A stretch of 1,511 bases of DNA from Escherichia phage ECO95 1-6-1. The translations under genes were made by a program, and so were the position numbers. The stretch lies in the sequence record OR845888.1. One strand, written 5' to 3'. This document shows, piece by piece, positions 983-1,084 of this stretch (position 1 is its first letter; every line of letters begins with the position of its first letter). Below the pieces are notes generated by a model, which was not told the DNA's origin, did not search any database, and worked only from the letters and a program-made list of their open reading frames with translations.

Positions 983-1084
983 TCAGCTAAACAGTTTAAT
1001 TAAAGCATAGATTACAAGGAAAGGAGCTGCCCATTGCAGGAGCAGCAGCGGAAGGATAACCAGCATGTACATAGCGTTACGCAT
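983..1084 (-). CDS. Hypothetical 33-aa hydrophobic single-pass membrane peptide (not in the ORF track)
   Basis: ATG at 1084..1082 preceded by AGAGGA with a 6-nt spacer (minus-strand CTTAAGAGGATTTTATATG). Translation MRNAMYMLVILPLLLLQWAAPFLVIYALIKLFS, then TGA at 985..983. The stop is embedded in the SD (GCTGAGGTG) of the downstream lipoprotein gene, implying translational coupling. It is the first ORF after the promoter and leader. Below the length threshold of the supplied track. Confidence 0.45.
   Translation of the reverse strand: MRNAMYMLVILPLLLLQWAAPFLVIYALIKLFS

Follow-up and report, generated by a model that had tools for sequence, protein, structure and literature searches.

A conserved 33-residue predicted membrane peptide encoded behind a structured leader RNA in the early region of a Cepavirus-like coliphage

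The 1,511-nucleotide (nt) stretch of Escherichia phage ECO95 1-6-1 (sequence record OR845888.1) analyzed here, hereafter the window, carries on its minus strand an open reading frame (ORF) of 33 codons plus a TGA stop (983..1084; ATG 1084-1082, TGA 985-983) that encodes the hydrophobic peptide MRNAMYMLVILPLLLLQWAAPFLVIYALIKLFS. Judged by comparison with its relatives, this ORF is a genuine protein-coding gene under frame-specific purifying selection, and its product is very probably a real, translated protein, predicted to span the membrane once. The peptide family is undescribed; the general kind to which it belongs, small phage membrane proteins of unassigned function, is well known and abundant in phage genomes. 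What might such a peptide do? The best overall explanation, to which we give an even chance, is that it would act early in infection as an accessory inner-membrane micro-protein, altering the envelope through partner binding by its C-terminus.

The conservation of the ORF across relatives places it beyond chance. With the downstream gene for a 79-residue protein used as a handle, 44 homologues of that gene were collected and 14 metagenome contigs carrying one of them were examined; a degenerate DNA motif scan added one locus. A peptide homologue of 33 to 37 residues lies at the equivalent early-region position in 14 of the 16 distinct loci that carry the 79-residue gene. It is missing from L007 and L021, both of which have that gene, and is present in L014, where the 79-residue gene is absent and the context is different. 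In Escherichia phage vB_EcoP_P64441 (loci L002 and L025), the homologue MRNALYMLFIIPLMLLQVAAPFLAIYGLIQLLS has 33 residues, shows 73% identity, is annotated as hypothetical protein XXQ42878, and is encoded directly upstream of an 81-residue homologue of the 79-residue neighbor. In vB_EcoP_PAS7 (L023), the homologue MGRIFGTTFLIAATIFNITLPFLAIYGLIMLFA occupies 1273..1374, in a gap without annotation. An initial annotation of the window, which had reported the ORF with its correct coordinates and exact peptide, had also called it unannotated, a description that suits PAS7 and fails for P64441. Its remark that such ORFs are easily missed is borne out by the gene callers, which skipped the peptide in six of nine checkable metagenome contigs (L006, L009, L010, L012, L019, L020) and in the curated PAS7 record, and called it in L004, L008, L022 and P64441.

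Selection was analyzed by pairwise Nei-Gojobori comparison of 15 distinct nucleotide sequences encoding 13 distinct peptides. In the peptide frame, the window and L014 are separated by 14 synonymous (Sd) and 7 non-synonymous (Nd) differences, corresponding to synonymous (pS) and non-synonymous (pN) proportions of 0.55 and 0.10; the comparison with P64441 gives a pS of 0.83 and a pN of 0.18. In the other two frames the pN/pS-type ratio is mostly near or above 1, and for the L014 and P64441 comparisons it exceeds 1 except for one value of 0.81. Variable sites within the last 13 codons fall at 6 of 13 first, 5 of 13 second and 13 of 13 third codon positions. Start, Shine-Dalgarno (SD) sequence and stop position are likewise conserved among the homologues. 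The initial annotation had offered a failure of the reading frame to be conserved in related genomes as grounds for abandoning the gene; instead, non-synonymous divergence (dN) is far below synonymous divergence (dS), and the other frames are not conserved.

The family has a distinctive two-part sequence. An N-terminal (G/R)-N dipeptide is followed by about 17 variable, uniformly hydrophobic residues and then by a near-invariant C-terminus, A-x-P-F-L-[AV]-[IVF]-Y-[GA]-L-[IT]-[QKM]-L-[FL]-[SGAN]-stop. In the window, the 13-residue motif that begins at the Pro of this C-terminus spans codons 21-33 (986..1024, minus strand), and P21, F22, L23, Y26, L28 and L31 are invariant in the 13 distinct peptides. 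The hydrophobicity of the N-terminal part is kept though its sequence diverges. All members have a grand average of hydropathicity (GRAVY) of 1.5-2.1, a best 19-residue Kyte-Doolittle value of 2.1-2.75 and 0-2 charged residues; basic residues number 0-2 and acidic residues 0-1, and several members are uncharged throughout. For the peptide of the window, GRAVY is 1.57 and the best 19-residue value is 2.35, above the classical transmembrane threshold of 1.6 and in agreement with the single hydrophobic helix first proposed for it.

Expression signals are readily recognized around the ORF. The sole strong promoter-like site in the window, on both strands, is a sigma70-type early promoter, TTGACT-17-TATAGT (1291..1319, minus strand; 10 of 12 matches). 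It is followed by a leader of about 200 nt (~1285 to 1085) that holds only a 5-codon mini-ORF, ATGAATGTTCTTAGTTAA (1142..1125); since this mini-ORF is so short and has no SD, the peptide is the first real cistron after the promoter, as had been claimed for the window. The peptide gene has its own SD, AAGAGGA (1091..1097, minus strand), 6 nt before the ATG, and the AGAGGA core (1096-1091) and 6-nt spacer, TTTTAT, agree with the initial description. The conserved leader module ends, on its 3' side, with this SD (TTAAGAGGATTT), which is itself conserved, as TAAGAGGA, across the homologues and the leader alignment. The peptide TGA (985-983) does lie within the SD of the downstream 79-residue gene, GAGGTG (979..984, minus strand), and P64441 has the same TGAGGTG arrangement of stop and SD. 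A 7-nt gap separates the stop from the next ATG (975), which the family N-termini identify as the start of the 79-residue gene in preference to GTG 981. Inside the peptide ORF, at 1046..1026 on the minus strand, the hairpin GCTGCTCCTGCAATGGGCAGC and the T-rich tract behind it resemble a terminator. We do not take it for one: pairing between Leu (CTG) and Ala (GCA) codons, which are complementary, probably gives rise to this hairpin, and the 37-residue subfamily (L009 type) does not conserve it.

How might the peptide act? Host RNA polymerase (RNAP) would transcribe the gene from the strong sigma70-type promoter, and translation would start from the gene's own SD to yield an inner-membrane micro-protein of 33 residues, nearly without charge, that crosses the membrane once. 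Its first two-thirds, variable in sequence and hydrophobic, would serve as a membrane anchor, leaving the near-invariant C-terminal 13 residues (PFLxIYGLIxLFS) as a functional surface that would bind a specific host or phage membrane partner. Because a motif containing Pro, Phe, Tyr and Gly is conserved within an otherwise freely varying hydrophobic helix, the alignment points to specific recognition, not to bulk hydrophobicity or lipid solubility. The peptide would thus be a non-essential accessory factor working on the cell envelope early in infection, with superinfection exclusion or neutralization of a host membrane function as its likeliest role. We infer an envelope-acting role because many products of the mosaic block of early cistrons around the peptide are envelope-directed (bitopic membrane proteins, tiny hydrophobic ORFs, a secreted 79-residue protein, a lipoprotein), and by analogy to phage exclusion proteins and bacterial small membrane regulators. 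Small envelope proteins that lytic phages make early and can do without are best known for excluding superinfecting phages or for blocking receptors and entry (T4 Imm and Sp; T5 Llp), and in bacteria single-helix proteins of similar size (AcrZ, MgtS, KdpF, CydX) bind and tune larger membrane complexes. Membrane insertion, partner binding and an exclusion or takeover role are what we infer; we hold the partner-binding, exclusion or takeover role tentatively, at an even chance or a little below.

Several observations weigh against this picture. Membrane orientation is not predictable, several members having no charged residue at all. The 13-residue motif is conserved on all faces of the helix, unlike the one-face conservation typical of helix-helix packing. 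Some regulatory leader peptides, too, are built with a conserved C-terminal motif beside the stop codon. Finally, six members searched against Pfam, NCBIfam and PHROGs gave no match (Pfam and NCBIfam at E <= 10, the best hits being unrelated models at ~12-14 bits), and a phmmer search of 1.84 billion representative proteins returned the L014 peptide as the only relative.

Among known systems, we think that the bacterial small membrane-protein regulators are what the peptide works like. By analogy with AcrZ-AcrB, MgtS-MgtA, KdpF-KdpABC, CydX-CydAB and MgrB-PhoQ, it would be a single helix in the range of about 30-50 residues that makes specific contacts with a larger membrane protein; such regulators, too, are routinely missed by annotation. 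The peptide differs from AcrZ, KdpF, CydX, MgtS and MgrB in being phage-encoded, in having no Pfam or NCBIfam match at E <= 10, and in having no bacterial homologue in the motif scans. A resemblance to KdpF or AcrZ suggested by the strings LVIYALI and IYGL was rejected, the scans of the six members against both collections being empty. A bolder version of the analogy, which we consider rather unlikely, would make the peptide the viral counterpart of these regulators: PFLxIYGLIxLFS would dock on, and switch off, one host inner-membrane machine within the first minutes of infection, and expression would be set by an undescribed structured leader RNA, which lies behind each of the strong host-type promoters looked at in these phages and could act in put-like antitermination or as a site of processing. 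The target may then be a transporter, a protease, a secretion or DNA-uptake component, or a membrane-bound defense effector.

The phage exclusion and envelope proteins (T4 Imm and Sp, T5 Llp, and Cor of T1/phi80-type phages) resemble the peptide in being early, non-essential, envelope-located and small, and in their place within mosaic accessory regions; the genes next to the peptide likewise encode secreted, membrane or lipoproteins. For the peptide, being expressed early and being located in the envelope are both predictions, from the early-region position, the sigma70-type promoter and the transmembrane helix. The structures differ: Imm has two transmembrane segments in ~83 residues, and Llp and Cor are lipoproteins, whereas the peptide is a 33-residue single helix with no homology to them; PHROGs, Pfam and NCBIfam disclosed no homology to a characterized exclusion protein. 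The T7 gene 0.5 protein (47 residues, MYMLTIGLLTALGLAVGASFGK...) is likewise small, strongly hydrophobic and encoded among the first class I early genes transcribed by host RNAP in a podophage of the T7 supergroup. T7 gp0.5 is non-essential and its function is unassigned. It gives no BLASTP alignment with the peptide at E <= 100, and it differs in being longer and Gly/Ala-rich, with a basic C-terminus and without the PFLxIYGL motif.

What else could a sequence of this kind be? A frame that is open by chance, in DNA that is noncoding or constrained in some other way, would account for an ORF that is short, is absent in its exact form from a collection of 15 billion proteins and is skipped by many gene callers. 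Frame-specific purifying selection across the 15 distinct nucleotide sequences effectively refutes this reading, and start, SD and stop position are conserved as well. Moreover, an ATG-initiated ORF of at least 33 residues with a GRAVY of at least 1.57 arose in 1 of 3000 shuffles of the window (the 19-residue hydrophobicity value was reached in 33 of 3000), and we regard chance as extremely improbable. The peptide could instead be an obligate partner, as membrane anchor or chaperone, of the co-translated 79-residue envelope protein. The two genes are adjacent in most loci, an order that the initial annotation had proposed to check and that is indeed common in related loci; the stop of one lies inside the SD of the next, and both products are envelope-directed. 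However, the peptide occurs without the 79-residue gene in L014, and the 79-residue gene occurs without a nearby peptide in L007 and L021. T1-like phages also carry the 79-residue family, and the one such locus examined (AugustePiccard, L016) has the homologue without the peptide. One extra gene separates the pair in L003, L008, L010 and L022 (tiny hydrophobic ORFs) and in L009 (a true lipoprotein, MKLLTIILAAIVMTGC). The 79-residue protein has a cleavable signal peptide of its own, its lipobox Cys is not conserved, and throughout the operon stops and starts generally abut or overlap. The peptide and 79-residue genes are not a dedicated translational couple, since each occurs without the other, insertions separate them in five loci, and their close packing is generic; the specific coupling first suggested for them does not survive, and obligate partnership is unlikely.

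A membrane-depolarizing or pore-forming toxin, type I toxin-like or holin-like, that shuts down host physiology or times lysis under the restraint of the structured leader is less likely again, though a small, very hydrophobic single-helix peptide behind such a leader invites the comparison, and TisB, Hok, Ldr and pinholin fragments fall in the same size class. Type I toxins (Hok, Ldr, TisB, Ibs, ShoB, DinQ, ZorO) share with the peptide its size, its hydrophobicity (the GRAVY and 19-residue values above are those of a small hydrophobic transmembrane peptide) and a structured 5' untranslated region (UTR). In their case the 5' UTR is dedicated; here the leader is generic, recurring two to three times per genome before unrelated genes (the gene behind it is not the peptide gene in P64441, L003, L006 and L012), and in relatives the peptide is the second to fourth cistron. 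Such a repeated module before different genes undoes the type I toxin messenger RNA (mRNA) pattern floated in the initial annotation, which had itself seen no convincing antisense promoter or terminator; a consensus scan, the only kind of search made, likewise finds nothing on the plus strand of the window that resembles a promoter or a terminator. Further differences are the lack of a toxin or holin family match (Pfam and NCBIfam, E <= 10) and a position-specific C-terminal motif that bulk membrane disruption would not need. Type I toxins and holins usually have polar or charged tails, and several family members are uncharged. Expression from the first early promoter also speaks against a toxin, as depolarization at that time would presumably hurt a phage still internalizing and expressing its genome. 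The peptide gene lies far from the lysis cassette, at 1.27 kb in PAS7 against 38.0 kb for the spanin and 40.0 kb for the endolysin; on the P64441 map, the tail fiber and the start of the early region separate the peptide (29.9 kb) from the holin (34.2 kb). A holin or pinholin was rejected for its wrong genomic place and timing and for the absence of a charged tail (C-terminus LI[QK]LFS). Could the peptide work in cis, as a translated leader? Its C-terminus would stall the ribosome at the stop and tune the next cistron, or the nascent chain would bring the early mRNA to the membrane. Conservation concentrated in the last 13 codons with an invariant Pro, a stop that overlaps the next SD, and a next cistron that always encodes a secreted or membrane-directed protein would all suit this reading, and arrest peptides of the TnaC, SecM and MifM type likewise have conserved residues near the C-terminus. 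They differ in having a constant downstream target: the gene behind the peptide varies by locus (the 79-residue gene, three kinds of tiny transmembrane ORF, a lipoprotein), leaving no single target. A 33-residue chain is nearly all within the exit tunnel at termination, which leaves no room for insertion-force sensing or recruitment of the signal recognition particle before release. Hydrophobicity is also selected along the variable N-terminal part, where an arrest peptide inside the tunnel would not need it. We consider a cis-acting role very improbable.

The peptide family has a narrow distribution. The exact peptide of the window is absent from the 15-billion-protein collection. With three different members as queries, tblastn against 50,697 phage records found the window's phage group, P64441 and PAS7, and nothing else. 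No match to the peptide occurred in 5,426 E. coli genomes, and it is therefore neither a prophage gene nor a host gene. The degenerate DNA motif scan found two loci in viral contigs (IMG/VR) and, in Joint Genome Institute (JGI) metagenomes, one contig already in the set, all of them phage contigs of this clade. Run on one genome per prokaryotic species, it gave a sole match in Pedobacter, outside any ORF of at least 20 residues, and thus no bacterial homologue. A search of the literature for Slopekvirinae early genes or this peptide family found nothing specific. On this sampling, the family appears confined to a rare clade of Cepavirus-like Slopekvirinae coliphages, in which it is common, although L007 and L021 do without it, which marks it as dispensable.

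Why does so small a gene matter? Taken alone, the peptide adds another hypothetical protein to the small membrane proteins of phages, from a rare clade at that, with nothing yet to surprise a specialist. Its ORF has nevertheless been validated by comparative sequence alone, exposing a recurrent annotation gap and defining a small family, without a name until now, of phage micro-membrane proteins whose sharply conserved 13-residue motif offers a compact handle for finding the membrane target. Should that target turn out to be an exclusion route, or a machine of the host envelope, the peptide would amount to its minimal inhibitor. The more unusual object of the window is the leader, a covarying, promoter-associated, multi-copy RNA without an Rfam counterpart.

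The conserved structured leader, about 200 nt long (1085..1285, minus strand), has a 100-nt covariance-model core at ~1190-1090. Copies were found by blastn two to three times per related genome. When 17 of them were aligned and folded with RNAalifold, four helices with 25 pairs emerged, 16 of the 25 showing compensatory changes, and the loops GAUAACCAAGA and AAGAGACAA proved invariant. A covariance model of the core, R1, recovers two to three copies per genome at 57-110 bits: 39189-39289, 41025-41122 and 5735-5835 in OR844702 (L024), 1165-1266 and 10473-10573 in PAS7, and 30224-30332 and 21353-21454 in P64441 (L025). The three copies that were checked each lie downstream of a host-type promoter, TTGAC[AG]-17-TATAGT, and directly before the first gene of a block. 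That gene varies: it encodes a membrane protein in P64441 and products of 64, 86 and 65 residues in L003, L006 and L012, and further copies precede a 139-residue gene (the second early copy) and a gene of ~62 residues after the DNA polymerase. Only in window-like phages and PAS7 does the peptide come first behind the leader.

What does the leader do? It may act as a put-like antitermination RNA or else as an element for processing or stabilization (RNase III, RNase E). The leader has no match in Rfam, and R1 finds nothing in the T7 early region, which carries the RNase III sites of T7; homology of the leader to those sites is therefore unsupported. Sequestration of the SD, suggested by a single-sequence fold in which it pairs with CUUAG, was dropped, as the alignment fold pairs GCUAAGA with UCUUAGU, with covariation. 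A start site in P64441 (L002 4640-4691) deserves mention here. The annotated 112-residue ORF XXQ42879 begins at an ATG inside the leader motif GCTAAGATG and reads through two 3' hairpins; in the window, the same ATG opens merely the 5-codon ORF at 1142..1125. From the sequence, the protein probably begins in truth 18 codons further on, at the ATG (MSSAIGFVVMGG...) that follows the SD-like TTAAAGG of the module.

All genes of the window lie on the minus strand. The end of a 54-residue gene (1511..1349) precedes the promoter, and the peptide gene is followed by the 79-residue gene (ATG 975 to 736; 736..975), a 63-residue gene (736..545) whose ATG lies within TAATG, a 67-residue gene (531..328), and the start of a gene for an ANT/pRha-type DNA-binding protein (326..1). 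The 79-residue protein had been taken for a lipoprotein. Its Sec signal peptide ends in an AxA cleavage site, and the mature part of ~53 residues contains two invariant Cys. The apparent lipobox column holds Cys in 7 of 47 aligned family members and mostly I, V, F, L or S elsewhere; conserved instead are the AxA signal-peptidase I site, the following (A/V)PNSIELCNWGKW, and the second invariant Cys. By these sequence features the family is one of Sec-exported, signal-peptidase-I-processed periplasmic proteins, not of conserved lipoproteins. The LMLSC of the window's own protein fits only a permissive PROSITE-style lipobox and not the conserved pattern [LVI][ASTVI][GAS]C; since the permissive pattern is satisfied, the protein may be lipidated in this particular phage, without lipidation being a property of the family. 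An AlphaFold2 (AF2) model of the protein is a three-helix bundle, with a predicted local distance difference test (pLDDT) score of 76 overall and 87-92 in the mature part; a fold search with it gave no match in PDB better than E = 1, and in BFVD matches only to uncharacterized proteins of T1-like phages. The family is common to T1-like Drexlerviridae coliphages, including AugustePiccard (bas01_0063), vB_EcoS_MM01, AHS24 and Ec_L1. This sharing of the 79-residue family indicates, at the sequence level, early-gene exchange between unrelated phage families.

In relatives, the genes next to the peptide tend to have envelope-directed products. The gene directly downstream encodes the 79-residue protein, a tiny hydrophobic ORF, the lipoprotein of L009, or a 37-residue transmembrane ORF (L014), and the gene directly upstream is often one for a bitopic membrane protein, its stop overlapping the start that follows (P64441, L003/L010/L019, L014). 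Tiny hydrophobic ORFs of 18-37 residues (e.g., MKLIDYVIFTFVGASLLSALASTVFSLINV, MQKNYETVLIAVMSVISVAVLYYYW and MHVLYSALPWLLWALGFVIVYMIASAVDDAKEEDKDA) directly follow the peptide gene at L003 2886-2978, L008 2416-2493, L010 539-595, L022 1527-1613 and L014 8587-8700, which suggests a variable cassette of putative micro-membrane proteins at this position.

The phage of the window is a Cepavirus-like coliphage of the Slopekvirinae (Autographivirales). Its nearest annotated relatives are two Slopekvirinae phages, P64441 and PAS7, the latter being the proposed type of the genus Cepavirus (PMC11522302). On the maps of both, the locus lies in the early region at the left end of the genome, where the peptide gene sits among short hypothetical genes upstream of the primase/helicase, the DNA polymerase and the phage RNAP.

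Five unannotated GenBank phage records marked 'UNVERIFIED' (e.g., OR844702, 43 kb) are 99.9% identical to the window. All near-identical records contain 317 nt more than the window, comprising a second copy of a 36-nt promoter repeat and a 78-residue ORF (MMIEQIKSTKPNVNG...). The repeat unit is the 36 nt surrounding the promoter (1293-1328), and it is perfectly matched at 3966-4001 and 4283-4318 of a near-identical record, L001, as direct repeat D3. From these sequences, the 317-nt difference is consistent with deletion, or duplication, through recombination between tandem promoter repeats. The 99.9%-identical sequences are deposited under three host genera, OR847174 and OR848645 as 'Listeria phage', OR850875 as 'Salmonella phage' and OR844702 as 'Escherichia phage', all as UNVERIFIED_ORG. 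Most likely, these deposits represent the same coliphage carried across samples or enrichments, and their host labels are untrustworthy.

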